DNA of 45,469 nt. Origin: Nemertoderma westbladi. Taxonomy: Eukaryota > Animalia > Xenacoelomorpha. The notes below the pieces were generated by a model. It was given only the letters and a program-made list of their open reading frames with translations, ran no database searches and had not been told where the DNA came from. This document shows, piece after piece, positions 17,969-45,469 of the stretch. Every line of letters starts with the position of its first letter. The stretch's first letter is position 1. Made by a program: the position numbers and the translations under genes. The stretch lies in assembly GCA_032718475.1 (NCBI GenBank), contig JAUCBJ010005094.1, positions 1 through 45,469 on the forward strand, in the 5' to 3' direction.

Positions 17969-18152
17969 GTATAGATTCCATTGATCAGTCTATTCCTCAC
18001 CCGAGCAAAAAGAACGGGATGAGGAAATTAACATAGAAAATCTGAACAAGAAATTAGGTAATTCTTAGAGATAAGATTAACTATTATTATAAAACTTAAA
18101 GTAACATTAAATAGCGGCTTAAATAAAACATTACGACAACACAAAGCCAAAA

Positions 18153-20521: not shown

Positions 20522-20542
20522 TTAAGATCCGATCCGGTAATT

Positions 20543-23500: not shown

Positions 23501-23800
23501 ATATTAACCCATGTATTATTAACCAATGTAATATTAACCCATGTAATATTAACCCATGTAATATTAACCCATATAATATTAACAAATGTAATATTAACCC
23601 ATGTAATATTAACCCATGTAATATTAACCCATGTAATATTAACCCATGTAATATTAACCAATGTAATATTAACCCATGTAATATTAACCCATATAATATT
23701 AACAAATGTAATATTAACCCATGTAATATTAACCAATGTAATATTAACCCATGTAATATTAACCCATGTAATATTAACCCATGTAATATCAACCCATGTA
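20543..23800. repeat. Second block of the 15-bp satellite, about 3.26 kb and about 217 units
   Basis: Same unit and variants as 6892-17968. Its right boundary (...ATCAACCCATGTA|GTATAGATTCC) is identical to that of the first block. Confidence 0.98.
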
Positions 23801-23984
23801 GTATAGATTCCATTGATCAGTCTATTCCTCACCCGAGCAAAAATAACGGGATGAGGAAATTAACATAGAAAATCTGAACAAGAAATTAGGTAATTCTTAG
23901 AGATAAGATTAACTATTATTATAAAACTTAAAGTAACATTAAATAGCGGCTTAAATAAAACATTACGACAACACAAAGCCAAAA

Positions 23985-26405
23985 CTATATTTTTTTAAGC
24001 AAATTCTCTAGTTTCTTTATGGTTCCAGACTCTTTATCTACTAAAGCGGAGAAGGCCTGTACGGCAGCTGATTGGCTGCTGGGTAGACTGTGGTGCATGG
24101 GGGATCTAGTCGCCCCAGCAACCGACTGACTGGGCATCTTGGCGTAGAAGATCTCGAGCAGCCCGCTCTGCTCCCCGCGTCGCAACCCCTTCATATCGAG
24201 GATCTTCTGGAAGTTATTCACGTCGAAGTCATCGAGAAGGTTGACGTAGTTGTCGACGAAACCATCGGCGACGTCATGCGGCGACATGACGACCTTAAGG
24301 ATCATCTCAGCGCGGCTCATACCCTTAATGACGATCTTGGTGAAGCTAGTCGGGGCCTTCCTACCGATCTGGGAACCGATCTGCGGCAGCTCCAGCAGCA
24401 CCGTCTTAAGCGAGTGCGTGTCCAACAGCAGCTGCTCGGCACCGACGGTGCTCACTGGTTTGCACCGGAACAACGCGTTTATAAACTTCGGTATGAAGGC
24501 GTTTACGAATCGGACGCAGAACTGGGTGAAGTACTTCCGGACGGAGGCCAACCGGTCGCGGATCGTGGGTAACGAGAGTTTAAACTGGCCGACCATGTTG
24601 GTGACGTAGACGCCCTGGTCTCCGACGGAGTCCACACTGCGCCAGTCTACCCGCGTCATCGCTAACAGCGCCGACTCGCAACCGGTCTCCAGATCCGCGA
24701 CCAGTAACCCGATGCATTGCGACACGACCCCGTGGAAGGCGTCCTGTTCCCGCGCCAGACTCACACTCTCCCGACCTCGTCCTCGCAACTTCTCCCCCAG
24801 TTTCTCCTCCAGCTGTTTGCTGGTCTCCAGACAGTACTCGGCCGTGCTGAGTATCCCGCAGACCTGTCGCACTTCCTCCCTGGAGTAGCGCGACTCACCG
24901 GAAACTCCCTCCTTCAGCAACGCCCCAACGTTCCCGTCCTTAAGACTTTCCTTCAGGATGGCGGCGAGGTTTATCCCGGAGCTCTGCGGAAGTTTCGGTA
25001 GGTTGGGGACGAGCACGCGAGTCGCGTACTCCGCCAGGTACCGTTGGAACAGTCGGGAGACGCCCAGTAACGGCTCGGGGCTCCCGAGCTGGCCGCACTC
25101 CACCATGCAGTGTTTGTAAGCGTGGAAGAGATCCGCGCAGCTCGGGAGGACTGACTCGCTACCGAAGTCGCAACTCTCTGACAGGAATCGCTCCATCATA
25201 CCCGACAGGTTTCGGTTTTGGTACTCAACGTAGACCGGCATGTGGGGCTGGAAGCAACTCGATATGAAACCGTGGAACTCCGACTCCGGCTGATTCGAGT
25301 CGGAAGGAAATCGTTTCGAGAGGAGCAGCTCGAAGTTGGTGGTCCGCTGGGTGGCGAAGAGGAGGAGTTTAACTTGAATATCGGCGGCGCGAGTCGCCAT
25401 GATGGAGGAGAGTTGGTCGCGAGTTGTGCGACAGAAGGCCACGCAGATGGTGCGACTTACGTCCCACCCGGAGGGGAACAGATGACTGAACTTGTGTTCG
25501 TAGTCCAGGAGGGAGCGCTTCAACCAGGCGTAGCGACGGTCTATCTTATCGAGCCAGGCGGCGTCCTGATTGGCTGCGAACAACACGCGATACTCGGACA
25601 GCTGGTTGTCTACGAACCAGACGAGCAGCTCCGACCGGTAACGCGTCGACAACGAGTCCAGCACCAGACACCCGTCGGCCAGCTGCTTAGAGTTAGACGC
25701 AGACCACGACTTCCCAGACTGGTAGGAGAAGACTTCGTGGAAGTCTCCTATAATCCTGGTCCCCAAGGTCTCCTCTACAGACTTAAGACGCTCCCCGAGC
25801 TGTTTTATGTGCCGGACTTCTGCATAGGAACTAAAGTGCTGCATTACGTTCTGCGAGGCCGGCAGAACGTTCGCAACTTCCCCGTACTGTCGTTTAGGCG
25901 CTAAGTTCTCCAACGACTCAACGCTACCCACTAGTAGATGCAAATGGTTTAGAGTTGTTATACTAGTGGTTAGGTGGCGTTTCGCGAAGTCGAGGGTTTT
26001 AATGTCACGGGTGATCTCTTTGACCATACGTTCTGACTGCTCGGCTTTTTCTTTGATACCGAGTATTTGAGCTGCGAGTTGTTCGATAGATTCTTTGGCG
26101 TCGTTGACGCAACGACTACCCTCTTCCCCAACATTAGTTTGACCGCGCACTACGTCCCGGATGTCGCCATCAATTCGTCGCAGTCGCATACGGATCTTAG
26201 AGACAACGTCGTCGATGTTGGCTAGACTCTGTTCCGTCGGGAACAACATGTTAATGTGGTCCACCACATTGAACTCGCGTTTATCAAGGGGGTCGTCGTT
26301 AGGGAATAGCTCCTTTATAACTTCTTCTACCTCCGGTGGGTAATTAAGATCCGGCGGTAAATTGAGATCATCCAACACACTTGTATCCTTCTCGGTGTCC
26401 ATCAC
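23985..26405 (-). CDS. VPS53: Vacuolar protein sorting-associated protein 53 homolog (GARP/EARP tethering complex subunit), 806 aa, intron-free CDS
   Basis: Recognisable conserved Vps53 motifs: DPLD...INMLFPTEQSLANIDDVV, MVKEITRDIKTLDFAKRHLTTSITTLNHL, AWLDKIDRRYAWLKR, GAEQLLLDTHSLKTVLL and FQKILDMKGL. Full-length size. Confidence 0.97.
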   Translation of the reverse strand: MMDTEKDTSVLDDLNLPPDLNYPPEVEEVIKELFPNDDPLDKREFNVVDHINMLFPTEQSLANIDDVVSKIRMRLRRIDGDIRDVVRGQTNVGEEGSRCVNDAKESIEQLAAQILGIKEKAEQSERMVKEITRDIKTLDFAKRHLTTSITTLNHLHLLVGSVESLENLAPKRQYGEVANVLPASQNVMQHFSSYAEVRHIKQLGERLKSVEETLGTRIIGDFHEVFSYQSGKSWSASNSKQLADGCLVLDSLSTRYRSELLVWFVDNQLSEYRVLFAANQDAAWLDKIDRRYAWLKRSLLDYEHKFSHLFPSGWDVSRTICVAFCRTTRDQLSSIMATRAADIQVKLLLFATQRTTNFELLLSKRFPSDSNQPESEFHGFISSCFQPHMPVYVEYQNRNLSGMMERFLSESCDFGSESVLPSCADLFHAYKHCMVECGQLGSPEPLLGVSRLFQRYLAEYATRVLVPNLPKLPQSSGINLAAILKESLKDGNVGALLKEGVSGESRYSREEVRQVCGILSTAEYCLETSKQLEEKLGEKLRGRGRESVSLAREQDAFHGVVSQCIGLLVADLETGCESALLAMTRVDWRSVDSVGDQGVYVTNMVGQFKLSLPTIRDRLASVRKYFTQFCVRFVNAFIPKFINALFRCKPVSTVGAEQLLLDTHSLKTVLLELPQIGSQIGRKAPTSFTKIVIKGMSRAEMILKVVMSPHDVADGFVDNYVNLLDDFDVNNFQKILDMKGLRRGEQSGLLEIFYAKMPSQSVAGATRSPMHHSLPSSQSAAVQAFSALVDKESGTIKKLENLLKKI

Positions 26406-27014
26406 AATGTCCTGATGTCATTATATACTCTACAGCCCTACCTAACTAAACAGCTAAATAAATAGGCCTATACTGACGAGAAAGATTGAGCTACCGTAGA
26501 TAGAGACACAGAAGGTAGCCAATACTACAATACAATCAATACATTAAAAATTACAGGGTTGGTCATAAAGAATAGCAGTAAACAGTAGGCTGGTAGGCTA
26601 AGGCAGTAAGGTAGGCCTATAGTAAGCCAGATTGAGGTTTTGGGAATTTCCGGTTTGGGGGGCACTGAAACGCTAAAAAACGCATGTGTCTAAAACACTT
26701 GTCTGGTGGGAAAACACTTTTTTAAAATATGAATTGCCGAATATTCGGCACAAATTGCAAATTACTACGGTCTGACGGTAGAAGCAACATCCTGACAACA
26801 GAACACAGGAACATGGCTGTAAGAAATTAAATATAACAGTACAGCAGTATAATTAATCTGATATATTACGGTATACTGGTATAGGATATACAGTGAGTAA
26901 GACAGTTTGCAACCATGGTTTGCCTTATTTTATATTATCTGACCCGAATAGGCCTATGTAACAAACTGACATATGATTAGGCTTAAAGCTAAACTGTTAG
27001 GCTAAGTAGGCCTA
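26406..27014 (-). promoter_or_regulatory. Probable VPS53 5' UTR and promoter region
   Basis: Unique sequence directly upstream of the ATG. It carries four TAGGCCTA palindromes (26463, 26612, 26949, 27007) and an ETS-like TTCCGG near 26648. The call is positional inference. Confidence 0.4.
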
Positions 27015-27966
27015 CCGAGTTCAAATCCCACTCGCTGACATACTTTTTGTAATGGCATTTTTAGTACTCAATCGGGACAAAATTGGAATTATAACCTTAA
27101 ATATCAGAATTTTACTACTGTATTAACAGTATAAAACGCGTAAATTAAAATATTTTTGGTCAAATTTCTTAAATTTTATTACACATGATAAAATAGCATC
27201 GAAGTAGAAAAGTTTTGCAATCCATTCACATACTCAAAGGTTATTGCAACTTTAGTTTAATGTTTAATATTTAATGTATAGAAAACTAATGCTTGTTGTA
27301 CCTGTACAAAGTAAATTAACAATTTAACTAAAAACTTTGGTATACAGTAGACAATTTACAAATACTAGATGAAGTTACAATAAGTACCTAAAACTGTTTA
27401 TGGGTAATAATTAAATGTTGATACTTAAATGGTGATACCGGTAATTACGAGTCTTGAGAACTGCACTAATTATTATTAATATCGATGTAAAAAAATAATA
27501 TACTGTATGTAAGTATTTTTAAAAAATATGAATAAAATAAAGTAGATCGTCAATCGTGATTAAAAACGCACTGGAACTGTAAATAAAATAAGGGAAATTG
27601 TGATTTAAAAGGAAGGGAGGATCGTTAGGGAAATACATACCATACAATAAATAAAAAATACTTTGTATTCAATTCATATTGTATAAACTAAAAAAATAAT
27701 AACAAATAAAATGAAAATTTAAAACCAGATAAAAAGTTAGATTAAAAATATTGAAATATGATAAAACAATGGTAATCAGTTATAGGTGGGCAGATTAAAA
27801 TAATTTGTGTTCATATTGTATAAACTAAAAAAATATAAATAAATAAAATACAAATGTAAAATTATTTAAAAGTATAATATAAAACAGAATTATGATGAAA
27901 CATTGTTAATAGGTGGCCGATAGAACAACGATAATGCAGTAATGAGTAAATGAGTTAGGCTATAGA

Positions 27967-28062
27967 CAGTCGAGGAGAAGTTTTCAACTGAGTTGAAATT
28001 TCAACTTTATTTTTTAAACTTTTGGAAAATTAAACTTTTTTTTTAAATTCAACTTTTGGAGT
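27967..28062. repeat. Copy of a short dispersed repeat that also occurs at about 1192-1278
   Basis: Both sites share CAGTCG...CAACTGAGTTGAAATTT...AACTTTATTTTTT...AAATTCAACTTTTGGAGT. Confidence 0.75.
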
Positions 28063-28472
28063 ACCGTAATTCGGGGTGACTTGATACATTGAGGTGACTT
28101 GATACAGCAAGTTATACTTTTTTTCTTTAACGGATTGCAGGTGATTGCGTGATGTTATGATAAAAGTTGAAATATTAGAAGATGTCTGAATAAATTGTCT
28201 ATCAAATAGTAAAATAAATTTTGTCATTGCTTCGCATTTGTGATCACTAGAGCCAAGAATGCATTGTTCAAAAATTCACTTTTTTTCAATGTCAAAATAT
28301 AGGTCGAATTTTTGACACTTTGGGTTAATGTTGTTCAAAAATTATTTTTAAGAATGCTAATAGATGAGTTTGAATATTATGATCCTAAAAAAAATTTACA
28401 AATTTTCATATGAATTGGGGGTGGAGTGCCCGTTTTTTGAAAGTGTGTCTCAAAATGGGGTGACTTGATACA
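28062..28472. mobile_element. Probable fragment of a pogo/Tc1-mariner-like MITE
   Basis: Begins TACCGTAATTCGGGGTGACTTGATACA, and GGTGACTTGATACA occurs three times (about 28074, 28093, 28459). No matching right TIR was found, so the family assignment is by resemblance. Confidence 0.35.
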
Positions 28473-28657
28473 TATATATGGTATATTGGAGGCTAAAATG
28501 TTCTGATACCTGTGACTACTGTGACTTAAACGTTGATTTTGCAAAATTTGTGCTTAAATTCATTGATTTAGTTTGCAGTTTTTTCTAAAATGTTTTGTAG
28601 ACAAGTGAGTCCAGTATCGCAATTATATATTGCATGGGATTGAGTATGTATCACCTT

Positions 28658-29400
28658 GGGGGGTCATACTTTTGTACCTGGGGGGGGTCTTACTTTTGTA
28701 CCTGGGGGTGGTCATACTTTTGTACCAGGGGGGGTCTTACTTTTGTACCTGGGGGTGGTCATACTTTTGTACCAGGGGGGGTCTTACTTTTGTACCTGGG
28801 GGTGGTCATACTTTTGTACCAGGGGGGACTTACTTTTGTACCTGGGGGTGGTCATACTTTTGTACCAGGGGGGTCTTACTTTTGTACCTGGAGGGGGTCA
28901 TACTTTTGTACCAGGGGGGTCTTACTTTTCTACCAGGGGGACTTACTTTTGTACCTGGGGGTCTTACACTACTTTTGTACCTGGGGTGTCTTACATTTGT
29001 ACCTGAGGGGGGAGGTCTTACTTTTGTACCTGGGGGGGGGGTCTTACTTTTGTACTTGAGAGGGGGGGGGGGTGGCTTACTTTTGTACCTGGAGGGGTCA
29101 TAGTTTTGTACCAGGGGGGTCTTACTTTTGTACCTGAGGGGTCATACTTTTGTACCTGGGAGGTCTTACTTTTGTACCTGGGATGGGTCTTACGTTTGTA
29201 CCTGGGGGTCTTACGTTTGTACCAGGTGGTCTTACTTTTGTATCTTGGGGGGGGGGGGGGTGGGGGTCTTACGTTTGTACCTGGGGGGTCTTAATTTTGT
29301 ACCTGGGGTGGGTATTACGTTTGTACCTGAGGGTCTTACGTTTGTACCAGGGGGGTCTTACTTTTGTACAAGGGCGGGAAAGAGGGGTCTTACATTTGTA
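28658..29400. repeat. G-run minisatellite, about 22-24-bp unit G(n)TCTTACTTTTGTACCT
   Basis: Visible tandem units with variable poly-G length. Confidence 0.93.
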
Positions 29401-29890
29401 GGGTCTTTGGTCTTAGGGTGTTGGGTCTTAGGTCTTTATTTTGTAGTCCCATAATATAACTACTGTAACTGCAATATTAATTAGTTTACATGTTCTTCAA
29501 TATATTATTGTGATGTGCAATGTTATAGAATTTATAACGATGCAATATTGAATATTTCTTTCAATTTTGGTATTATTTTTTTATACTGTAGTTTTGTTAT
29601 CGTTTTGTTTATTTCTCATATTTTTGTTTATTAAAGTTTATTTTGTCAATATATACTGTAGTACAGTACGTTATGCCGATTCATATTACCGATATACCGT
29701 AAATTTAGCTTTGAATTATTTTTTATTCCGGGCAAAATTTGTTAAATAAGTTCATTTTCGACAGCCATTCGTTTATTCAGTGTAAGTGGCTAAATAAAAT
29801 AAACACCGTTCGTTGCCATCTTTAAATTATTGGTGAGGTTTGATATATTACGGAGCTCCTAAAGGGACATGAGAAAATTTTTTTTTTTTG

Positions 29891-30290
29891 CTAACTCGTG
29901 CGAACGACTTAGTATGTCGTGCGAACGACTTACTAAGTCTTGCGAACGACTTAACTGGCACGACATACTAAAGTCGTGCGAACGACATACTAAGTCTTGC
30001 GAACGACTTAACTAACTCGTGCGAACGACATACTAAGTCGTGCGAACGACTTACTAAGTCGTGGGAATGACATATTATGTCGGGCGAACGACTTAACTAA
30101 CTCGTGCGAACGACATACTAAGTCGTGCGAACGACTTACTAAGTCGTACGAACGACATACTAAGTCGTGCGAACGACATACTAACTCGTGCGAACGACTT
30201 ACTAAGTCGTGGGAATGACATATTATGTCGGGCGAACGACTTAACTAACGCGTGCGAACGACTTAGTAACTCGTTCGAACGACTTACTAA
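29891..30290. repeat. 21-bp palindromic minisatellite (TCGTGCGAACGACTTACTAAG)n, about 19 units
   Basis: Visible tandem units with no unique spacers. It may be internal to a truncated DNA element starting near 29850. Confidence 0.9.
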
Positions 30291-30965
30291 CTTTACTTTG
30301 ATTGGCTAAATAATACTGGTAATAAAAGTACAACCTTTTTAGCGGGATTTTCAATTCAATCTACAGCATTTGTTGATGGCATTATTGGTTGAAATATTAT
30401 TATCAATGGCTGAACGCGCTCTAAGGGTATAACTTTTCGCCGCATACGTATGCATTTGCCGTATCCGTATGTACATACGCGTATGTGCGTATGTAATGGA
30501 TTCCTATGGAGAATAATCAAGTATATGATTTTAGAGATTAGGCATTGCGGATCAGTAAGAAGTACATACAGACTGAAGACAGGTAGACCTACTTAAAGCT
30601 AAGTGATTTAAAGAGTGTGGCTGCCGCTACCTTATGTCAAATAAACATATTGTAGGTCCGGGATGAGTGACAGCCGGTGGCCGCCAGCCACGGGATGCGC
30701 CAGCAGTGCAGTCTACTGTATTCCAGTTAACTCTTCTTGACGCCGCTTGGAGAACTAACCAACCGTGATTTATTTTGAACTGTGTTTCCACCAACCTGGC
30801 TATATAATCTTGTTGGTTGCTACAGTATATGGCACTAACATAGTATAGTATAGATACCTAGGGTAGTCAACCTACTCCCCCAGGCTTCGGAATGGAACTT
30901 TTCTACTCCGGATAGCATCGAGGTTTACATTGACGCATCTAACACGAAGTGGGGACTTCGCGCAG

Positions 30966-31415
30966 CACGAAGTTGGCAGAGCCTTAGCGAATTGACACTG
31001 TTAGGGGGTAGGTCAATTTATGCAAATAGTCACGTTGGCCCTCTAGCGGCAGACTGGAGAACTGCAGATGGATTCGCCTCCTTTGAAAGTCACAGCTAAT
31101 GGTCTAATACATATCTGCCAAGTTTCAGCTTAAACGGATTAAAAGCAAAGAAATGGGAGGGCATTTAATGTTTAGACATGTGGCCCTCTAGCGGGAGACC
31201 ATTGCACTGATGGTGTCTGAAAGTCTCTCAAAAATCTCAACTTTTGCTCATATTGATACCTACAAATTTTCAACTTGGCAGCTTTAAATCCGACAAAGTT
31301 ATTAGCATGTCAAAATCGTAACGACGACGACGACGACAACGACGACGACAACTATTTGCATAAATTGACCCACCCCCTAACAGTGTCAATTCGCTAAGGC
31401 TCCGCCAACTTCGTG
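30966..31415. mobile_element. Foldback/MITE-like element with 65-bp inverted arms and an internal (ACG)n tract
   Basis: 30966-31030 is the reverse complement of 31351-31415 with about 2 mismatches. (ACG)n lies at about 31321-31350. No TSD was identified. Confidence 0.75.
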
Positions 31416-31819
31416 GCTCGCCCCACAAGGCCTATACGGCTTGCATCTACACGGTTAAGGGGGGATTGCATACTGTTTTCTCACTTTCTTAACCTTCTTG
31501 CACCTTCACACTCTGTTTGCGGAAGATCCTGACTTTTTCAACAGTACAAGTTTTTATATTTTTAGCGGCATTTTTATCTGTAAATAGTATATCTGCAATT
31601 TCTGTGATATCTTTTAACTTCTAACTGATTCTAATGATATAATAGTTCCGGCAGTTCTCAACGATCTCAACTTGTTTTTCTCCTCAACTTCGCTTCCTAC
31701 ACAGTCCACTTCATCGAACTCTTAACGGGAGGTGTCTAATAGCCCTCTCACTTTGGTAAGACCCAATGGAACAGGTGTGATCCCCCCTCTCTGACTCTCA
31801 CAACTCTGTACCGTTCCTC

Positions 31820-32262
31820 ACATATATAGATCAACTTGAAGGGGATACTGGACTTGAGAGAAACGAAATTGCGAGCACAATGAAGAATCTATGTTATAGT
31901 ACATTATGATAATGCTCTCCATACAAGTACAGTACTTTACTGAGTGACTGTAAAAGGCCTATATATGATAGCTCACTCCATAGCGAATAAATCTTCTACC
32001 GCCCTGGTAGCTCAGTGGTCTTAGGACACACACTCGGCTGATGATAACCGGAAGTTTGAAACCTAGGTACCGGGTTCGAGCCCCAATAGGGGCGGTTGAT
32101 ATTTTTCGCTATGGAGAGCATTATCATAATGTACTACAATATATATTTATTCGCCGTCACCCACCCCACAACAATTCATTTATAACAATGAAGAATCGGG
32201 AAGCCTGGAAGGATCTCATTTCCACTGTCCGAGTTTGCTCGACCTAGTAGTAAGTAGTAGTA
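31820..32262 (+). mobile_element. 3' end of an RTE-like non-LTR retrotransposon, interrupted by an insertion
   Basis: Removing the insert and one TSD copy restores TYIDQLEGDTGLERNEIASTMKNREAWKDLISTVRVCST*, which resembles RTE-clade ORF C-termini. It is followed by a short tandem tail, TAGTAGTAAGTAGTAGTA. Confidence 0.7.
31890..32184 (+). mobile_element. 295-bp tRNA-derived SINE-like insertion with internal inverted repeats
   Basis: 13-bp TSD ACAATGAAGAATC (31877-31889 and 32185-32197). A-box TAGCTCAGTGG (32008-32018) and B-box GGTTCGAGCCC (32073-32083). 27-bp perfect inverted repeat at 31897-31923 and 32110-32136. Confidence 0.8.
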
Positions 32263-32936
32263 TATTGAAATAATTTAATAAATATACATTTAAAATTTCA
32301 TGAATGCTTTAACATGAAAACAAGGTACAAAAGAAACATGACATTGTAAATACTGTAGTAGAACAAATCAAATAATTGGTAACGTAAAGCTGGTATAACG
32401 TTTAAGATATATAGTGCAAAAATAATATTATAACAATATTATACAACTAAAAAATTGGTACAAAAAGCTTTCACGTAGAAATTATAACTTATTTATTTCA
32501 GGTGCAAAAACTTTGAGACGGCTGATCAATAATTGCAAACAACTAATTTGGTAGCGATTGCTGCTTGTTGATTGTTCTGGTTTTACATGCAGTAGGCCTA
32601 CTAATAAATAAATAAATACAATAATATACAATTACAGTATTGTTACTGGTATGTATTTGGTAACTGAAAACAAAGGTAAGCAAATGACAACAATTGCTGT
32701 CAGATTCTAAAGAGAACATGCAGGTAAATGTAATGTTTAGAACTTTCTGATATAAAATCTGATATTACTACAATTATTGCGATTCTTTACTTAACTATTT
32801 TGCAGTGATCGTTTGATTTTCTAATAACTTAAATTGCAAAATGCAATGCAAAAGGCACTTTACTTTATAAGTACCGGATAAGATTTTATATGCCAACAAA
32901 CTGCACTTTATGGTGTAAATTGTATGATCACACCTA

Positions 32937-35900
32937 CTCCTGGAACAATGCGAGTAGTTCAATCACTAATGGAACAATGCAAGTAGTTCAATCACTCCTG
33001 GATCAATGGGAGTAGTTCAATCACTCCTGGATCAATGGGAGTAGTTCAATCACTAATGGAACAATGCGAGCAGTTCAATCACTCCTGGAACAATGCGAGT
33101 AGTTCAATCACTAATGGAACAATGCGAGCAGTTCAATCACTCCTGGATCAATGGGAGTAGTTCAATCACTCCTGGAACAATGGGAGTTGTTCAATCACTA
33201 ATGGAACAATGCAAGTAGTTCAATCACTCCTGGATCAATGGGAGTAGTTCAATCACTCTTGGATCAATGGGAGTAGTTCAATCACTAATGGAACAATGGG
33301 AGTAGATCAATCACTCCTGGATCAATGGGAGTAGTTCAATCACTCCTGGATCAATGGGAGTAGTTCAATCACTCCTGGATCAGTGGGAGTAGTTCAATTA
33401 CTCCTGGATCAGTGGGAGTAGTTCAATCACTCCTGGATCAATGGGAGTAGTTCAATTACTCCTGGAACAATGCGAGCAGTTCAATCACTCCTGGATCAAT
33501 GGGAGTAGTTCAATCACTAATGGAACAATGCGAGCAGTTCAATCACTCCTGGAACAATGGGAGCAGTTCAATCACTCCTGGATCAATGGGAGTAGTTCAA
33601 TCACTCCTGGAACAATGCAAGTAGTTCAATCACTCCTGGAACAATGCAAGCAGTTCAATCACTCCTGGATCAATGGGAGTAGTTCAATCACTCCTGGATC
33701 AATGGGAGTAGTTCAATCACTAATGGAACAATGCGAGCAGTTCAATCACTCCTGGATCAATGGGAGTAGTTCAATCACTCCTGGAACAATGCAAGTAGTT
33801 CAATCACTAATGGAACAATGCGAGCAGTTCAATCACTCCTGGATCAATGGGAGTAGTTCAATCACTCCTGGAACAATGCAAGTAGTTCAATCACTAATGG
33901 AACAATGCGAGCAGTTCAATCACTCCTGGATCAATGGGAGCAGTTCAATCACTCCTGGATCAATGGGAGTAGTTCAATCACTCCTGGAACAATGCAAGTA
34001 GTTCAATCACTCCTGGAACAATGCAAGCAGTTCAATCACTCCTGGATCAATGGGAGTAGTTCAATCACTCCTGGATCAATGGGAGTAGTTCAATCACTAA
34101 TGGAACAATGCGAGCAGTTCAATCACTCCTGGATCAATGGGAGTAGTTCAATCACTCCTGGAACAATGCAAGTAGTTCAATCACTCCTGGATCAATGGGA
34201 GTAGTTCAATCACTCCTGGATCAATGGGAGTAGTTCAATCACTAATGGAACAATGCAAGTAGTTCAATCACTAATGGAACAATGCGAGCAGTTCAATCAC
34301 TCCTGGATCAATGGGAGTTGTTCAATCACTAATGGAACAATGCAAGTAGTTCAATCACTCCTGGATCAATGGGAGTAGTTCAATCACTCCTGGATCAATG
34401 GGAGTAGTTCAATCACTCCTGGAACAATGCAAGTAGTTCAATCACTCCTGGATCAATGGGAGTAGTTCAATCACTCTTGGATCAATGGGAGTAGTACAAT
34501 TACTCCTGGAACAATGGGAGTAGTTCAATCACTCCTGGATCAGTGGGAGTAGTTCAATCACTCCTGGAACAATGCGAGTAGTTCAATCACTCCTGGAACA
34601 ATGCAAGCAGTTCAATCACTCCTGGATCAATGGGAGTAGTTCAATCACTCCTGGATCAGTGGGAGTAGTTCAATCACTCCTGGAACAATGCGAGTAGTTC
34701 AATCACTAATGGATCAATGCGAGCAGTTCAATCACTCCTGGAACAATGCGAGTAGTTCAATCACTCCTGGATCAATGGGAGTAGTTCAATCACTCCTGGA
34801 TCAATGGGAGTAGTTCAATCACTAATGGAACAATGCGAGCAGTTCAATCACTAATGGATCAATGCGAGTAGTTCAATCACTAATGGAACAATGCAAGTAG
34901 TTCAATCACTCCTGGATCAATGGGAGTAGTTCAATCACTAATGGAACAATGCAAGTAGTTCAATCACTCCTGGAACAATGCAAGCAGTTCAATCACTCCT
35001 GGATCAATGGGAGTAGTTCAATCACTCTTGGATCAATGGGAGTAGTTCAATCACTCCTGGAACAATGGGAGCAGTTCAATCACTCCTGGATCAATGGGAG
35101 TAGTTCAATCACTCCTGGATCAATGCGAGTAGTTCAATTACTCCTGGATCAATGGGAGTAGTTCAATCACTCCTGGAACAATGCAAGTAGTTCAATCACT
35201 AATGGAACAATGCAAGTAGTTCAATCACTAATGGAACAATGCGAGCAGTTCAATCACTCTTGGATCAATGGGAGTAGTTCAATTACTCCTGGAACAATGG
35301 GAGCAGTTCAATCACTCCTGGATCAATGGGAGTAGTTCAATCACTCCTGGAACAATGCAAGTAGTTCAATCACTAATGGAACAATGCAAGTAGTTCAATC
35401 ACTAATGGAACAATGCGAGCAGTTCAATCACTCCTGGATCAATGGGAGTTGTTCAATCACTAATGGAACAATGCAAGTAGTTCAATCACTCCTGGAACAA
35501 TGTAAGCAGTTCAATCACTCCTGGATCAATGGGAGTAGTTCAATCACTCTTGGATCAATGGGAGTAGTTCAATCACTCTGGAACAATGCAAGCAGTTCAA
35601 TCACTCTTGGATCAATGGGAGTAGTTCAATCACTCTTGGATCAATGGGAGTAGTTCAATCACTCCTGGATCAGTGGGAGTAGTTCAATCACTCCTGGAAC
35701 AATGCAAGTAGTTCAATCACTAATGGAACAATGCTAGCAGTTCAATCACTCCTGGAACAATGCGAGTAGTTCAATCACTAATGGAACAATGCGAGCAGTT
35801 CAATCACACCTGGATCAATGGGAGTAGTTCAATCACTCCTGGAACAATGCAAGTAGTTCAATCACTAATGGAACAATGCGAGCAGTTCAATCACTCCTGG

Positions 35901-38900
35901 AACAATGCGAGTAGTTCAATCACTAATGGAACAATGCGAGCAGTTCAATCACTCCTGGAACAATGCGAGTAGTTCAATCACTAATGGAACAATGCGAGCA
36001 GTTCAATCACTCCTGGATCAATGGGAGTAGTTCAATCACTCCTGGAACAATGCAAGTAGTTCAATCACTAATGGAACAATGCGAGCAGTTCAATCACTAA
36101 TGGAACAATGCGAGCAGTTCAATCACTCCTGGATCAATGGGAGTAGTTCAATCACTCCTGGAACAATGCAAGTAGTTCAATCACTAATGGAACAATGCGA
36201 GCAGTTCAATCACTCCTGGATCAATGGGAGTAGTTCAATCACTCCTGGAACAATGCAAGTAGTTCAATCACTAATGGAACAATGCGAGCAGTTCAATCAC
36301 TAATGGAACAATGCGAGCAGTTCAATCACTCCTGGATCAATGGGAGTAGTTCAATCACTCCTGGAACAATGCAAGTAGTTCAATCACTAATGGAACAATG
36401 CGAGCAGTTCAATCACTCCTGGAACAATGCGAGTAGTTCAATCACTAATGGAACAATGCGAGCAGTTCAATCACTCCTGGATCAATGGGAGTAGTTCAAT
36501 CACTCCTGGAACAATGCAAGTAGTTCAATCACTCCTGGAACAATGCGAGCAGTTCAATCACTCCTGGATCAATGGGAGTAGTTCAATCACTCCTGGAACA
36601 ATGCAAGTAGTTCAATCACTAATGGAACAATGCGAGCAGTTCAATCACTCCTGGATCAATGGGAGTAGTTCAATCACTCCTGGATCAATGGGAGTAGTTC
36701 AATCACTCCTGGATCAATGGGAGTAGTTCAATCACTAATGGAACAATGCAAGTAGTTCAATCACTCCTGGATCAATGGGAGTAGTTCAATCACTCCTGGA
36801 TCAATGGGAGTAGTTCAATCACTCCTGGATCAATGGGAGTAGTTCAATCACTAATGGAACAATGCAAGTAGTTCAATCACTCCTGGATCAATGGGAGTAG
36901 TTCAATCACTCCTGGAACAATGCAAGTAGTTCAATCACTAATGGAACAATGCGAGCAGTTCAATCACTCCTGGATCAATGGGAGTAGTTCAATCACTCCT
37001 GGATCAATGGGAGTAGTTCAATCACTCCTGGATCAATGGGAGTAGTTCAATCACTCCTGGATCAATGGGAGTAGTTCAATCACTCCTGGATCAATGGGAG
37101 TAGTTCAATCACTAATGGAACAATGCGAGCAGTTCAATCACTCCTGGATCAATGGGAGTAGTTCAATCACTCCTGGATCAATGGGAGTAGTTCAATCACT
37201 CCTGGATCAATGGGAGTAGTTCAATCACTAATGGAACAATGCAAGTAGTTCAATCACTCCTGGATCAATGGGAGTAGTTCAATCACTCCTGGATCAATGG
37301 GAGTAGTTCAATCACTCCTGGATCAATGGGAGTAGTTCAATCACTAATGGAACAATGCAAGTAGTTCAATCACTCCTGGATCAATGGGAGTAGTTCAATC
37401 ACTCCTGGATCAATGGGAGTAGTTCAATCACTCCTGGATCAATGGGAGTAGTTCAATCACTAATGGAACAATGCAAGTAGTTCAATCACTCCTGGATCAA
37501 TGGGAGTAGTTCAATCACTCCTGGAACAATGCAAGTAGTTCAATCACTAATGGAACAATGCGAGCAGTTCAATCACTAATGGAACAATGCGAGCAGTTCA
37601 ATCACTCCTGGATCAATGGGAGTAGTTCAATCACTCCTGGAACAATGCAAGTAGTTCAATCACTAATGGAACAATGCGAGCAGTTCAATCACTCCTGGAA
37701 CAATGCGAGTAGTTCAATCACTAATGGAACAATGCGAGCAGTTCAATCACTCCTGGATCAATGGGAGTAGTTCAATCACTCCTGGAACAATGCAAGTAGT
37801 TCAATCACTCCTGGAACAATGCGAGCAGTTCAATCACTCCTGGATCAATGGGAGTAGTTCAATCACTCCTGGATCAATGGGAGTAGTTCAATCACTCCTG
37901 GATCAATGGGAGTAGTTCAATCACTAATGGAACAATGCAAGTAGTTCAATCACTCCTGGATCAATGGGAGTAGTTCAATCACTCCTGGATCAATGGGAGT
38001 AGTTCAATCACTAATGGAACAATGCAAGTAGTTCAATCACTCCTGGATCAATGGGAGTAGTTCAATCACTCCTGGATCAATGGGAGTAGTTCAATCACTC
38101 CTGGATCAATGGGAGTAGTTCAATCACTAATGGAACAATGCAAGTAGTTCAATCACTCCTGGATCAATGGGAGTAGTTCAATCACTCCTGGAACAATGCA
38201 AGTAGTTCAATCACTAATGGAACAATGCGAGCAGTTCAATCACTCCTGGATCAATGGGAGTAGTTCAATCACTCCTGGATCAATGGGAGTAGTTCAATCA
38301 CTCCTGGATCAATGGGAGTAGTTCAATCACTCCTGGATCAATGGGAGTAGTTCAATCACTCCTGGATCAATGGGAGTAGTTCAATCACTAATGGAACAAT
38401 GCGAGCAGTTCAATCACTCCTGGATCAATGGGAGTAGTTCAATCACTCCTGGATCAATGGGAGTAGTTCAATCACTCCTGGATCAATGGGAGTAGTTCAA
38501 TCACTAATGGAACAATGCAAGTAGTTCAATCACTCCTGGATCAATGGGAGTAGTTCAATCACTCCTGGATCAATGGGAGTAGTTCAATCACTCCTGGATC
38601 AATGGGAGTAGTTCAATCACTAATGGAACAATGCAAGTAGTTCAATCACTCCTGGATCAATGGGAGTAGTTCAATCACTCCTGGATCAATGGGAGTAGTT
38701 CAATCACTCCTGGATCAATGGGAGTAGTTCAATCACTAATGGAACAATGCAAGTAGTTCAATCACTCCTGGATCAATGGGAGTAGTTCAATCACTCCTGG
38801 AACAATGCAAGTAGTTCAATCACTAATGGAACAATGCGAGCAGTTCAATCACTAATGGAACAATGCGAGCAGTTCAATCACTCCTGGATCAATGGGAGTA

Positions 38901-41518
38901 GTTCAATCACTCCTGGAACAATGCAAGTAGTTCAATCACTAATGGAACAATGCGAGCAGTTCAATCACTCCTGGAACAATGCGAGTAGTTCAATCACTAA
39001 TGGAACAATGCGAGCAGTTCAATCACTCCTGGATCAATGGGAGTAGTTCAATCACTCCTGGAACAATGCAAGTAGTTCAATCACTCCTGGAACAATGCGA
39101 GCAGTTCAATCACTCCTGGATCAATGGGAGTAGTTCAATCACTCCTGGATCAATGGGAGTAGTTCAATCACTCCTGGATCAATGGGAGTAGTTCAATCAC
39201 TAATGGAACAATGCAAGTAGTTCAATCACTCCTGGATCAATGGGAGTAGTTCAATCACTCCTGGATCAATGGGAGTAGTTCAATCACTCCTGGATCAATG
39301 GGAGTAGTTCAATCACTAATGGAACAATGCAAGTAGTTCAATCACTCCTGGATCAATGGGAGTAGTTCAATCACTCCTGGAACAATGCAAGTAGTTCAAT
39401 CACTAATGGAACAATGCGAGCAGTTCAATCACTAATGGAACAATGCGAGCAGTTCAATCACTCCTGGATCAATGGGAGTAGTTCAATCACTCCTGGATCA
39501 ATGGGAGTAGTTCAATCACTCCTGGATCAATGGGAGTAGTTCAATCACTCCTGGATCAATGGGAGTAGTTCAATCACTAATGGAACAATGCGAGCAGTTC
39601 AATCACTAATGGAACAATGCGAGCAGTTCAATCACTCCTGGATCAATGGGAGTAGTTCAATCACTCCTGGATCAATGGGAGTAGTTCAATCACTCCTGGA
39701 TCAATGGGAGTAGTTCAATCACTCCTGGATCAATGGGAGTAGTTCAATCACTCCTGGATCAATGGGAGTAGTTCAATCACTCCTGGATCAATGGGAGTAG
39801 TTCAATCACTAATGGAACAATGCAAGTAGTTCAATCACTCCTGGATCAATGGGAGTAGTTCAATCACTCCTGGATCAATGGGAGTAGTTCAATCACTCCT
39901 GGATCAATGGGAGTAGTTCAATCACTAATGGAACAATGCAAGTAGTTCAATCACTCCTGGATCAATGGGAGTAGTTCAATCACTCCTGGAACAATGCAAG
40001 TAGTTCAATCACTAATGGAACAATGCGAGCAGTTCAATCACTCCTGGATCAATGGGAGTAGTTCAATCACTCCTGGAACAATGCAAGTAGTTCAATCACT
40101 AATGGAACAATGCGAGCAGTTCAATCACTCCTGGATCAATGGGAGTAGTTCAATCACTCCTGGAACAATGGGAGTAGTTCAATCACTCCTGGATCAATGG
40201 GAGTAGTTCAATCACTCCTGGAACAATGCAAGTAGTTCAATCACTAATGGAACAATGCGAGCAGTTCAATCACTCCTGGATCAATGGGAGTAGTTCAATC
40301 ACTCCTGGATCAATGGGAGTAGTTCAATCACTCCTGGATCAATGGGAGTAGTTCAATCACTAATGGAACAATGCGAGTAGTTCAATCACTAATGGAACAA
40401 TGCAAGTAGTTCAATCACTCCTGGATCAATGGGAGTAGTTCAATCACTCCTGGAACAATGCGAGCAGTTCAATCACTCCTGGATCAATGGGAGTAGTTCA
40501 ATCACTCCTGGAACAATGCAAGTAGTTCAATCACTAATGGAACAATGCGAGCAGTTCAATCACTCCTGGATCAATGGGAGTAGTTCAATCACTCCTGGAT
40601 CAATGGGAGTAGTTCAATCACTCCTGGATCAATGGGAGTAGTTCAATCACTAATGGAACAATGCGAGTAGTTCAATCACTAATGGAACAATGCAAGTAGT
40701 TCAATCACTCCTGGATCAATGGGAGTAGTTCAATCACTCCTGGAACAATGCAAGTAGTTCAATCACTAATGGAACAATGCGAGCAGTTCAATCACTCCTG
40801 GATCAATGGGAGTAGTTCAATCACTCCTGGAACAATGCAAGTAGTTCAATCACTAATGGAACAATGCGAGCAGTTCAATCACTCCTGGATCAATGGGAGT
40901 AGTTCAATCACTCCTGGATCAATACGAGTAGTTCAATTACGCCTGGATCAATGGGAGTAGTTCAATCACTCCTGGATCAATGGGAGTAGTTCAATCACTA
41001 ATGGAACAATGCAAGTAGTTCAATCACTCCTGGATCAATGGGAGTAGTTCAATCACTCCTGGATCAATGGGAGTAGTTCAATCACTCCTGGATCAATGGG
41101 AGTAGTTCAATCACTCCTGGATCAATGGGAGTAGTTCAATCACTAATGGAACAATGCGAGTAGTTCAATCACTAATGGAACAATGCGAGTAGTTCAATCA
41201 CTAATGGAACAATGCGAGCAGTTCAATCACTCCTGGATCAATGGGAGTTGTTCAATCACTCTGGAACAATGGGAGTAGTTCAATCACTAATGGAACAATG
41301 CGAGTAGTTCAATCACTAATGGAACAATGCGAGCAGTTCAATCACTAATGGAACAATGCGAGCAGTTCAATCACTCCTGGATCAATGGGAGTTGTTCAAT
41401 CACTCCTGGATCAGTGCGAATAGTTCAATCACTCCTGGATCAATGCGAGCAGTTCAATCACTAATGGAACAATGCGAGTAGTTCAATCACTCCTGGATCA
41501 ATGCGAGCAGTTCAATCA
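32937..41518. repeat. 29-bp satellite, about 296 units (8582 bp), consensus CT(CC/AA)TGGA(T/A)CAATG(G/C)(G/A)AG(T/C)AGTTCAATCA
   Basis: 296 x 29 = 8584. Subtracting the two 28-bp units seen near 35578 and 41260 gives 8582, which matches the span. The unit at 41490-41518 lies inside the SERAC1 CDS. Confidence 0.97.
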
Positions 41519-43499
41519 TTGAATAAACGTTACGGTTTATAGCTATTCTATTGTAGATCTGTTCGACCAGAAAATCAACAGTAAGTGTGTAAAGTTTTGA
41601 TCTTCGATTGTCAGGTTTACAAATATCAGTGTGGTCCGCGGGGTACATAACAACCTTACCCAAACCGAGGTCTGCCGAATCCATGGTAACCACATGCTGT
41701 CGAATTGGAACGCCACCTAGTTGGAATATAGTCGTTTTTTCTGATTCGACTATGCTGAGAATTGAATAGTCATTGAGTTTAGCTAAATTTATGAAGTTCT
41801 TATTAAGTTTCTGGAGTTGGGAAGAGTTAGGGTGTAATTGGGACACCTCCAAGGACGGTTGAACCAGACTTCGCCAATTTTCAGTGTGAATGCAAAGGGG
41901 AACCCCGAAATGCGGTACGGAATAGAACAACAACGCCTTGGTGCTGTCAGCGATGGGATTCTGGCAGCCCGAAGCAGCAATCAACAGCTCTTTAACCACT
42001 AAACCGCCCATGGAATGTGATATCCACACAATCGGTCTATTACCAAGGCCTGACTGGGTGAGTTTCTCGAGCAACTGCTGGGCATGGTATTCAATTAGTT
42101 TAGGGCTGCGACCAGAAGGTGCAAACCATTCGCTCAAATACGATGGGTAGCCCACTGAGAGAATCCGACAGTCTGACATATCTCTAGATAACCAAGATTT
42201 AGGCCATAGCAATGTCTGTCTTCCAGATTCACCTAAATATATATCAAAGTCTGATTGCACAATCGATACAGATTGCTGTCTTTCCTCAATAGACCAGTCA
42301 TTGACTTTAAACATTACAGATGTCAAGGAATTAAAGCAATGTGATACTATCTGCGATATGATGCTGCACATGGAGTTGATTCTGCTGACAACAGCAACAA
42401 GTAAACTTTTATGTTCAACATCCCGCTGACGCCAAGTAAAGAAAGTGGAGCCTTTAATTCCATGGACAAACACTATATCGGCTAGGGGATGGTTGCTCTG
42501 GTACCAACATGGATGAACTAAATACACGTCCTCAGCAATCCGTTCATTTGTATCATCTGGGACGAGATTGACAAGGATTCTATTACTATAGACACCAAGG
42601 ACCTCGTCATTGGAGGCAAGGAACATATGAAGGGTCGGGAGCAACCCACTCGAGCGAACAATCTCGGAGGGACTCACAGAAGCCGCGTTGTTTAGAATAC
42701 ATAATACTGTCGACTTAATATTCACATTGTAAAGGGAGGACGTCAATATGGATGATAAATAATTGAGGCAACCTAATTTTATCATTTGTTTAATGCAGTC
42801 AATCCTCCTAGAGTAAACAAGAAGGGCATCAAGACAGGCAGACACCATTTTGGGTGTGTCGACATCGATTCGTATATCATCTCTAGGAGTATATAATTCG
42901 TATGGTTCAGTGTGTGGCGGATTATCTTCCTCTGATAATATGTGGCTATATAAATTCTTCAAAGGTACTATATACTCCTCAAATTCTGGGAACTTATGAT
43001 CCGGAAGATTGTATATAATTCGCAGGAGATTGGTATCGATTGAGTCGCCGCCTTCCATTTCGCTGTTTTTAGGCCCTAACAACCGCGGGTCAATGCCCTC
43101 CGAGCGAGCCAATAACGCCAGAGACTCCCAATCACATAAGTTGTAGAATAAGTTGCACTGCGTCACGGTCCAGCTACTCTGCACATCTAGAAGTCTACTC
43201 ACAACCCAACTCGAGTCGCTCCCTATTGATCGCGCCAGATACTCCGGTGTAACATCGTTCCATCGCTGTAAGATTCCTGCAGATTTACCTCTAGCTGACT
43301 TACTGCGCCATCTCTCGGTCTCAACAGCAGATGTAGCAAAGGTAATTTTGTTTCCGATATCACGGGTTTGCTCCACAATAAACGTAACTCCGACAATGCT
43401 ACTTCCAAATACAACAGGTGGGATGAGTTTCTTTAAAACTCGCTTTAATTTGTAAGGAATACGAAGCCGCTTGAAAAACGTAAATCGTAAACGCTGCAT
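41487..43499 (-). CDS. SERAC1: Protein SERAC1 homolog (serine active site-containing alpha/beta hydrolase, phosphatidylglycerol remodelling), 670 aa, intron-free CDS
   Basis: N-terminal hydrophobic segment, helical middle region, and SERAC1-type motifs DIVFVHGIKG, WPKSWL, PIVWISHSMGGLVVK (catalytic Ser), FYSVPHFG, SADLGLG and DHTDICKP. Confidence 0.93.
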   Translation of the reverse strand: MQRLRFTFFKRLRIPYKLKRVLKKLIPPVVFGSSIVGVTFIVEQTRDIGNKITFATSAVETERWRSKSARGKSAGILQRWNDVTPEYLARSIGSDSSWVVSRLLDVQSSWTVTQCNLFYNLCDWESLALLARSEGIDPRLLGPKNSEMEGGDSIDTNLLRIIYNLPDHKFPEFEEYIVPLKNLYSHILSEEDNPPHTEPYELYTPRDDIRIDVDTPKMVSACLDALLVYSRRIDCIKQMIKLGCLNYLSSILTSSLYNVNIKSTVLCILNNAASVSPSEIVRSSGLLPTLHMFLASNDEVLGVYSNRILVNLVPDDTNERIAEDVYLVHPCWYQSNHPLADIVFVHGIKGSTFFTWRQRDVEHKSLLVAVVSRINSMCSIISQIVSHCFNSLTSVMFKVNDWSIEERQQSVSIVQSDFDIYLGESGRQTLLWPKSWLSRDMSDCRILSVGYPSYLSEWFAPSGRSPKLIEYHAQQLLEKLTQSGLGNRPIVWISHSMGGLVVKELLIAASGCQNPIADSTKALLFYSVPHFGVPLCIHTENWRSLVQPSLEVSQLHPNSSQLQKLNKNFINLAKLNDYSILSIVESEKTTIFQLGGVPIRQHVVTMDSADLGLGKVVMYPADHTDICKPDNRRSKLYTLTVDFLVEQIYNRIAINRNVYSMIELLALIQE

Positions 43500-43680
43500 T
43501 ACCGGTAGGCCTAATCTAACAGTATAATCTTCAAATAAATTAAAGTTTTAGCCGGTATTTACAGATTTACTGTAGGCCTACTGCTGTAGGCTGGAACAGT
43601 AAGCAAGCACATTTAAAAACTTTTGCTTTGATTGATTACGCCAGTACGTAGGCCTACCGGGACTGTCTAAAACCCGGTCC

Positions 43681-45034
43681 CAGGGGCGGTTCTAGGATTT
43701 TGCTTGGGGGGGGGGGGGGGGGGGGGGGGCAAAATATTTAATTTGCTGAGGTCAATTTTTCGGATTTTTAAATGGCTCCACGCAAGCAGTAGAGTCCAAT
43801 CTGGACACGTTTATAAACGCCAACTTTAAATCATTAAAAAAAACATCCCCAACAACAACTTTGTCTAAACCCGTCCACTCTAATATATCTAATTATTTAG
43901 TTAACTGAAGGGTCGCAGCCGTTAGCTGGTGGTAACCCGTATCGTTCCAAAGATGTGGTGGAGAGACGCGACGTGTGTGGCACTCCTTTCCATTAATTTG
44001 TAATGATATCGTTTATTGTTTTGGTTAGTTAGGTTTCGGTATGGAGATGGTATGTTCTGCGCAATAAAATAATTATCATATATTTAATTATTTAAGAGGC
44101 AATAAATATACTTTAGTATTTTTAGCCGCACAAACTTTCATAACATGTGTGGTAGTGGAAAATATTGAAGTAATTAAATGACAGACTGAGTTTAATTTGA
44201 CTTAAATGCAATGGGCCATTATTTGTATTTTTAACCCTGTTGAAAATTATTAATTCAGACTATTTTAATTGCAAAATTATATATATATTAAGAAATGTAC
44301 TGCTTAAATTTACTTGCACATGCCTTAAACCACCAAGCCACTGAACTTACCAATGGAGATATTTCCAGTGACCATACCATGGACCAATGGCAGGAGACAT
44401 CTACCTTCTCACCTGTACACCTGTGACACCTTCACATGTGCAATGTGGGCAGTGCTGAAAGGCTATGCAACCAATACAGAACCAAACTACTATGTTTGTA
44501 TGTTGGATGGGCTAAATTTCTAGCATCAATAAGCTAAACTTGGAACCACCATTATACTATCAGCTGGCTATGATGCCACTCCTGCTCAAATTTTGGCGCC
44601 CCTTGGAAGGTGGCGCCCGGGGCCGTCGCCCCCCCCCCCCCCCTTCTGCACGCCACTGCACGGTGGAGAAGACGTTTCGGAAACAAGCTACAGTTCGTCG
44701 CAGCCCCCAATGAAAAAAAAATAAACAAAAAGAAACATTAAAAAAAATTATTATACTTTGAAAAAAATTTCCCGATTTTTTCCCGAATTCCCAAAGTTCC
44801 AGAATTTTACAAAAATATCAGAGTGTTTTATAATGGAGACCGCCGGGTAGTAACTAAATTTTGAAAAAAAATAGAAGTTTTTCCCAGAGAGGTCTGTTTT
44901 CGAGCAAAAGTCGGTACCCACTGGTACGGATTTGCCACATTACCTTTCGCTAGGGAGGGGGCAAGCCCCCCCCCAAGATACCTGGGGAGGGGCAGATGCC
45001 CCCTTGCCCCCCCCCCCCCCTAGAACCGCCTCTG
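43681..45034. mobile_element. Non-autonomous hAT-type element, 1354 bp, 181 bp upstream of the SERAC1 ATG
   Basis: 15-bp TIRs CAGGGGCGGTTCTAG and CTAGAACCGCCTCTG (1 mismatch). 8-bp TSD CCCGGTCC (43673-43680) and CCCGGTCT (45035-45042). Subterminal poly-G and poly-C tracts. Confidence 0.82.
44588..44658. mobile_element. Solitary end of a second hAT-like MITE nested in the 43681-45034 element
   Basis: GC-rich GGCGCCC motifs, a poly-C run and a terminal CACGCCACTG (CAG-type end). The partner TIR was not found. Confidence 0.45.
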
Positions 45035-45245
45035 CCCGGTCTGGTCCCGGTCTCGGTCCACTGCAGAACCTAACACCCGGTCAGTCCAATTTTTGCCCGG
45101 TCCACGTGAAAATTCCTAAAACCCGGTCCCAATAATTCCTAAAACCCGGTCCATAAACTCGCGGTCCATAAAATTTAATTATTAGTTATTAATTATCGGT
45201 CTTAAAGTTAAAATGACTAAAACCCGGTCCCAAAATCACGGTCCA
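45035..45245. repeat. Cluster of AAAACCCGGTCC / CGGTCC motifs, probably an older element split by the hAT insertion
   Basis: The motif occurs at 43669-43680 (left of the insertion) and at about 45118, 45141 and 45219, with partial copies in between. Confidence 0.6.
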
Positions 45246-45469
45246 ATTTTTTCTTACATTTTCATGATATTTTATGTTATAATAATGTTTTTATGAGGGT
45301 GAGTACAAAACAACAACTCAAGACCTGTACAAAACACATGTGTTAACTTTCGTTTATTGTTTTGATTCCCCCAGCACGCCTCTGTAACCTGCTCCTTTAA
45401 ATGGCAATGGGACCTAATTAATGCTCTTTTGGACCTAACGCGACTTTACCTCTTTGTTTTGTACAGGTC

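Follow-up and report, generated by a model that had tools for sequence, protein, structure and literature searches.

Satellites can rarely be followed back to their source (10.1101/213868). This work concerns an array of 296 head-to-tail units of 29 bp at the 3' end of a SERAC1 homologue in contig JAUCBJ010005094.1 of Nemertoderma westbladi (GenBank assembly GCA_032718475.1), analyzed over positions 1 to 45,469; this whole 45,469-nucleotide stretch is referred to here as the window. The first unit of the array is the last 29 coding bases of the gene, the next unit begins with the stop codon, and the array probably arose in place from these coding bases.

TRACT, a VNTR (variable number tandem repeat) with a 30-bp unit in intron 3 of CACNA1C, is single in the chimpanzee and present in hundreds of copies in humans (10.1101/311795; PMC13131567). 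The SERAC1 array resembles TRACT in its ~30-bp monomer, in an apparent in-place expansion that gave hundreds of head-to-tail copies and spans several kilobases at one locus in a gene, and in having a few variable positions and alleles that differ in unit make-up. Unlike TRACT, which is intronic and whose array ends are reported to be nearly constant, the monomer here is the coding end of the gene and the next unit supplies the stop. In addition, the gene-side edge of the SERAC1 array appears to vary, and a single-copy ancestor, which has been seen for TRACT, was not seen here. The CapA satellite, which derives from an intron of NOS1AP (10.1101/213868), is likewise traceable to single-copy sequence of a protein-coding gene. 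Its monomers, however, are 1.5 kb long and intronic in origin, and they were amplified elsewhere, in heterochromatin, leaving the donor locus as a monomer, whereas the SERAC1 array remains at its probable birthplace and overlaps the reading frame.

In a published model, a satellite is born when slippage or circle reinsertion duplicates a unique site de novo, and unequal crossing-over then amplifies the copies locally (PMC5615363). The course proposed here for the SERAC1 array resembles that model, but no dissemination step is seen, and the unique site consists of the terminal codons of a gene. Satellite-like arrays borne by Helentrons occur in Crassostrea gigas (PMC7492417). Tandem arrays are scattered in an invertebrate genome in both cases, but these oyster arrays sit as central repeats within mobile elements and have the same flanks at many loci, whereas the SERAC1 array is flanked by coding sequence and unique DNA. 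VNTRs also occur in transcripts, for instance in mucins (coding) and in the 3' untranslated region (UTR) of SLC6A3 (PMC12776774). As in such cases, repeat variation within the SERAC1 transcript may change the protein or the UTR. DRD4 and CEL are further genes with coding VNTRs. Units of coding VNTRs are divisible by three and all copies are translated, whereas the SERAC1 unit measures 29 nt and has a single translated copy, the others being predicted UTR. In a literature search lying mostly outside subscription journals, we found no array that has the coding end of a gene as its first unit and regenerates the stop, and the available parts of two reviews (PMC12776774 and PMC8122249) name no case of a coding-end monomer.

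The array and its junctions

The array is described along the minus strand, with units numbered from 0 at the gene side:

32937..41518, minus strand: tandem array of 296 units of 29 bp
41490..41518, minus strand: unit 0, the first repeat unit, equal to the last 29 coding bases of the SERAC1 open reading frame (ORF)
41487..41489, minus strand: current stop TGA, the first three bases of unit 1
32934..32936, minus strand: TAG abutting the last unit and, with the array reduced to a single unit, in frame; a candidate for the ancestral stop
36677..39286, minus strand: higher-order duplication, in which 46 consecutive unit types recur at an offset of 44 units (from units 77 and 121)

Tandem Repeats Finder (TRF) reported 296.0 copies of 29 bp at 32936-41518 with 89% matches and 0% indels, and splitting the array into units gave a length of 29 nt for 294 units and 28 nt for 2. 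When ≤3 mismatches were allowed, a single unit type matched 205 times, compared to 0 times in 100 shuffles. Made of head-to-tail units within the range of 10-100 bp, the array is a minisatellite by the usual definition (PMC5615363). Classical heterochromatic satellite DNA comprises hundreds to thousands of units in constitutive heterochromatin; the SERAC1 array has hundreds of units and borders a gene under apparent constraint. An earlier note on this DNA, made from the sequence alone, had described ~296 copies of a 29-mer shared with the SERAC1 coding end, a TGA formed by the first bases of the next unit, and a TAG directly after the last unit, and all three descriptions hold. The repeat unit quoted there does occur, but only at positions 0 and 2, which makes 2 of 296 units, and 2 of its sites disagree with the consensus.

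The 294 full-length units fall into 30 types, which change along the array in an ordered manner. Rare variants make up 35% and 32% of the units in the outer segments, compared to 2-8% inside, and the center is homogenized. Slippage and unequal exchange would be expected to leave both edge-located rare variants and a repeated 46-unit block. Since all six frames of the array contain stops, only one unit would be translated. An in-frame TAG is present at the last codon of 85 of the 294 units (those ending CAT TAG), any of which would shorten the protein by one residue if placed first. Folding at the junction was no better than in shuffled sequences (z of 0.87), and no Rfam family was detected in 26400-45469.

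Both ends of the array are clean, with a whole number of units in one register. The chance of an in-frame stop at the first codon past the last unit is 0.054 from flank composition, or 0.15 given the shared T. A stop is recreated by only 8 of 115 possible terminal unit lengths, of which 29 is one, and most such duplications would therefore extend or shift the protein end; a duplication of 29 nt, unlike most unit lengths, leaves it intact. The letters G15 and GG, which co-occur in 56 of the 294 units, are retained in both terminal units. The full letter set of the coding unit is found in 5 of the 294, three of them within the first four.

The SERAC1 gene, its predicted transcript, and the array in other samples

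The gene, the far flank, and the units concerned in the comparison of samples are as follows:

41487..43499, minus strand: intronless SERAC1 homologue ORF of 670 amino acids, with an N-terminal hydrophobic segment, a helical middle, and an alpha/beta-hydrolase domain with HSMGG
32492..32933, minus strand: unique sequence of the far flank, which may be the original 3' UTR; it contains AATAAA and variant poly(A) hexamers and is rich in indels between samples
41432..41518, minus strand: units 0-2, present in the window and in run X1, apparently absent in samples S2 (run X2) and S3 (run X3)
41403..41431, minus strand: unit 3, the apparent coding unit of S2 and S3, with Phe in place of Leu at residue 665, the same protein length, and the stop taken from unit 4

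The top matches of the ORF are named SERAC1 (E value of 1.5e-63, 27-33% identity across 66-95% of the query). In an alignment of 80 sequences, H495, S496, G498, and G499 are invariant and H623 is nearly so; we take these to be the lipase-type serine motif and the late histidine with their catalytic roles in an alpha/beta hydrolase. SERAC1 proteins have an N-terminal hydrophobic membrane segment, and the hydropathy maximum of the ORF (1.79 in a 19-residue window from residue 25) aligns with the N-terminal segment of its homologues. An AlphaFold model with a mean predicted local distance difference test (pLDDT) score of 82 contains a predicted strand-helix domain at 325-669 and a predicted C-terminal helix at 635-669 (pLDDT of ~70 at the end), whose final residues are encoded by unit 0. 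A search of the protein against a local copy of Pfam gave 0 families, while many homologues carry a precomputed PF27756 assignment. A tree of 26 named homologues, based on the C-terminal part only, gave the ORF a branch of 1.83 and did not settle its placement; the nearest rows are animal SERAC1 proteins. SERAC1 is known for its phosphatidylglycerol remodelling activity (PMC11919462). The ORF differences listed between samples comprise 5 synonymous and 1 non-synonymous change (p = 0.003 against a neutral share of 0.776), and this excess suggests that the ORF is a constrained, working gene.

Close relatives were sought in several collections. Among the best 150 of 1.84 billion representatives, the closest reached ≤44% identity in local stretches; metagenome contigs gave no close relative, and two runs of other organisms (X6 and X7) gave 0 records at 80% likeness. 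The neighboring VPS53 shares ~52% identity with its best matches, which are mostly molluscan, and judged from these sequences the host is likely an animal without a close database relative. Past the His anchor, the ORF has 48 residues compared to a median of 37 in homologues, as measured in 147 of 200 homologues (the 53 that were dropped lacked the anchor or had tails of >90 residues). Its tail is of ordinary length, with tails as long in 50 of the 147. Tail sequence is unconserved among SERAC1 homologues; the refutation proposed in the earlier note, in which orthologous proteins would lack the unit-encoded tail, cannot therefore work with distant SERAC1 proteins.

None of the 13 poly(A) hexamers tested occurs in the array. 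The absence of AATAAA and ATTAAA from the units and the AATAAA at 32492-32497, the first past the array, had been recognized before; no change between samples is listed at that site. However, variant hexamers lie much nearer than had been noticed, with CATAAA at 32912, TATAAA at 32890 and 32869, and AGTAAA at 32864 and 32791, all 25-145 nt beyond the old TAG. Because the array holds no poly(A) hexamer and signals are present only past the old TAG, a transcript of ~11 kb carrying the array as its 3' UTR is plausible. Far-flank contigs from X3 (S3) and X4 show a 111-nt deletion (32583-32693) and several small indels.

The gene was found in five runs, all of DNA and from three studies; X1 is possibly the window's own source. 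Contigs of X2 and X3 enter the repeat from coding sequence, and contigs of X1-X4 cross from the far flank into the last unit, where mismatch counts indicate that the last unit and the TAG are identical to those of the window. Because both junctions recur in contigs of two other samples, the array is not an artefact of one assembly. On the gene side, the X2 and X3 contigs depart from the window at 6 of the first 54 array letters and from the last three units at 9 letters; they have identical loose end letters and a listed base change at 41508. Unit pairs alone gave 33 solutions, whereas under all constraints (mismatches, loose ends, and unlisted sites) the only fitting triplet among 294 consecutive ones was units 3-5. 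The probability that a random triple fits is 9.6e-5. As a control, the X1 contig has 11 mismatches, which agree with window units 0-4 and with none of the other offsets between 2 and 7. The reach of contigs into the array was also simulated with k-mers, but the simulation was discarded when its control failed (X1, 30 predicted and 144 inferred).

By this fit, the array of S2 and S3 appears to begin three units further in, so that unit 3 is coding and unit 4 provides the stop. The coding unit appears to be exchanged between samples, which the earlier note had missed; repeat turnover seems to swap the last ten codons of the protein. The predicted effect is likely small, consisting of one conservative change in an unconserved tail. 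A gain in the window allele and a loss in S2 and S3 would both account for the difference. Minisatellites vary between individuals in unit number or order, and such variation was found here at the gene-side edge, where the window and X1 differ from X2 and X3 by 6 letters in 54 and the best fit has three units fewer in X2 and X3.

Origin of the array

We consider it likely that this locus-specific minisatellite arose by in-place tandem duplication of the last 29 coding bases of SERAC1. In the proposed course of events, the ancestor had one unit followed by TAG, and slippage or a repair-associated duplication would have produced two copies. Further slippage and unequal exchange would have expanded and homogenized the array and created the 44-unit higher-order duplication, and three units gained or lost at the edge nearest the gene would have brought a different unit into the coding position, with Leu or Phe at residue 665. 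As TGA opens the unit, every copy gives an in-frame stop to the one before it, and the gene therefore likely survived the initial duplication as well as later gain or loss of units. A whole number of units between unrelated flanks, without target-site duplication or element ends, is the expected outcome of duplication in place; no bracketing pair of inverted or direct repeats was found around the array either, and instead of the shared ends of an element-borne array there is SERAC1 coding sequence on one side and unique sequence on the other. Tandem arrays make up 58% of the window (seven arrays, 26.2 of 45.5 kb), so births would be frequent in the region, and no special mechanism has to be invoked for one that falls at the end of a gene.

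The array is probably confined to a single locus. Among the long matches listed on the repeat in four runs, the contigs of the window's two junctions were the sole flanks. The remaining records listed were short array fragments or flank pieces, none of which, in any run, continued into an unlike stretch. No other copy of the 29-mer is present in the window, and a search of metagenome and viral contigs, limited to exact matches, gave 0 matches. With the last three units as bait, the repeat alone recovered the gene-side contig in 3 of 4 runs, whereas it did not recover the far-side contig in 2 of 2.

Several points weigh against an in-place origin or the results built on it. The junction test is about half sensitive, since 3 of 6 known junction contigs were seen via the repeat alone, which tempers the absence of a third flank among the matches listed and with it the proposed uniqueness of the 29-mer. 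The unit letters of S2 and S3 were derived from counts, loose ends, and one listed change rather than read. In the X2 contig, codon 99 is hit by a frameshifting 2-nt deletion at 43203, which casts doubt on how essential this gene copy is; together with an 8-nt insertion at 43567, upstream of the ATG, it possibly marks a null allele or else an error in the contig. Neither the relatives nor the metagenome contigs nor X6 and X7 gave a single-unit orthologue. The flanks joined without any unit stay open for nine codons before a stop, so the sequence alone leaves room for an insertion. Codon usage, homologue tails, and GC content did not tell the unit apart from the far flank. Codon-usage log-odds for the unit and the far flank are -0.18 and -1.05, with a standard deviation of ~2. 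The BLOSUM score of the unit peptide against homologue tails (40 tails, from 44 of the 147 that were of suitable length, after removal of 4 near-duplicates) was equalled by 16% of 775 non-coding peptides. GC content is 0.33 in the 100 coding bases before unit 0, 0.29-0.31 in the flank, and 0.48 in the unit; the last value proves little because the preceding coding bases are as AT-rich as the flank. No direct repeat longer than 1-2 nt at the flanks explains the first duplication. Helix propensity (0.28 for the unit and 0.84 for the far flank, with 0.37-0.81 in real tails) slightly favors the unit. The in situ duplication proposed in the earlier note thus agrees with the whole units, the far in-frame TAG, and the presence of two flanks only, but lacks its single-unit orthologue; similarly, the proposed ancestral end CAG GAG TAG is supported by the frame of the far TAG and tempered by the open zero-unit join and by the 85 units with a TAG of their own.

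These observations also bear on other origins. The 29-mer might have expanded within the 3' UTR, with the upstream stop lost later so that the gene was read into unit 0 up to the first TGA. Homology to other SERAC1 proteins fades at residues 642-660, ahead of the unit; over the final 100 coding bases ahead of unit 0, the GC content is UTR-like (0.33), the median homologue tail is shorter (37 residues compared to 48), and arrays start 180 nt after the stops of the window's VPS53 copies. We nevertheless find this course unlikely, as it makes the in-frame TAG past the last unit a coincidence (with a chance of 0.05-0.15) and requires a second event, the stop loss, within the lifetime of an array that is 89% identical, while tails in 50 of 147 homologues are equally long. 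It is somewhat less probable again that the monomer was derived from coding sequence but held its own stop (CAT TAG), and that a stop-less variant later took both ends; the stop would then have been lost and compensated instead of recreated at birth. Such a monomer would account for the 85 of 294 units with an in-frame TAG at the last codon, and the two forms are separated by a double change that could have run either way. Against it, the window has the stop-less form at both ends, X1-X4 agree in their last unit, the apparent first unit of S2 and S3 is likewise stop-less, and the TAG past the last unit would be a second stop by chance.

In our view it is very improbable that a ready-made array, coming from a dispersed satellite family or brought by a Helentron-like carrier or circular intermediate, displaced the last nine codons of the gene on insertion near its end. 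Joining the flanks without the array does give an open frame of almost equal length, and arrays carried by Helentrons are common in the oyster (PMC7492417), but an insertion would have to deliver 296 complete units beside a coding flank and leave no partial unit, no target-site duplication, and no element ends. It also has to contend with the absence of a third flank among the contigs listed for four runs and of 29-mer copies elsewhere in the window or, as exact matches, in metagenome and viral contigs, and it too needs the far TAG by chance. Least probable of all is that the array is real and its length was inflated in assembly, for instance at the 44-unit duplication, where 46 unit types recur exactly; no contig or read spanning the array was seen. 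Both junctions are present in independent samples, however, and unit types change in order along the array. Depth on the repeat compared to the gene was 3337 versus 100 in X2 and 1914 versus 9.7 in X3, although depth is no copy number.

Neighboring features and biological meaning

The window holds an intronless VPS53 tandemly duplicated at 17973-26402 on the minus strand, with 99.8% identity over 2549 nt. In the second copy, the first 49 bases of the coding sequence are missing, a junction near 20521-20545 is marked by short repeated fragments, and the next ATG at 20417 would give 754 amino acids. A 15-bp satellite of 740 copies (6892-17972) and 218 copies (20543-23804) starts 180 nt past each VPS53 stop, so that all three gene copies in the window, including SERAC1, have a large array at or near the 3' end. 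On the plus strand, a 54-bp array (5093-6710, 30 copies) is open for 559 codons. Its unit contains a pyrimidine run, CAG, and GTGAGT, resembling a splice acceptor directly before a donor, as does the unique DNA flanking the array on both sides, and this array was possibly also born from part of a gene. Two elements resembling miniature inverted-repeat transposable elements lie downstream of the SERAC1 array, at 30966-31415 (terminal inverted repeats of 65 nt, 97%) and 31886-32147 (38 nt, 92%). About 180 nt upstream of the SERAC1 ATG, 1.35 kb at 43681-45034 is bracketed by inverted arms with long G/C runs and appears to have entered a stretch made of short direct repeats. Further, unrelated minisatellites lie at 4110-4654 (11 bp), 28653-29369 (22-24 bp), and 29891-30290 (21 bp).

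The SERAC1 array most likely has no selected function and is a neutral survivor, one of the rare repeat births in coding DNA that selection tolerates. A larger role is conceivable, and we hold it only tentatively and with some doubt: the satellite may act as the gene's supply of stop codons, its turnover swapping the C-terminal decapeptide, and the mRNA may carry the 8.6-kb array, whose length would tune SERAC1 expression. Because the effect on the protein is likely small and the region readily makes arrays, the locus serves as a clear case study and does not amount to a new system, and its most interesting feature is the apparent swap of the last codons. Satellite origins traced in the cited literature are intronic or transposon-derived, whereas the SERAC1 array, if the in-place origin is true, would be a coding monomer at its birthplace. 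It would then also illustrate a simple rule by which a non-triplet repeat can arise and survive in a gene, namely, that a stop opens the unit and the last codon closes it. As such, the locus would provide a natural test of whether repeat turnover can rewrite a protein terminus and whether an animal mRNA tolerates a repetitive 3' UTR of many kilobases.

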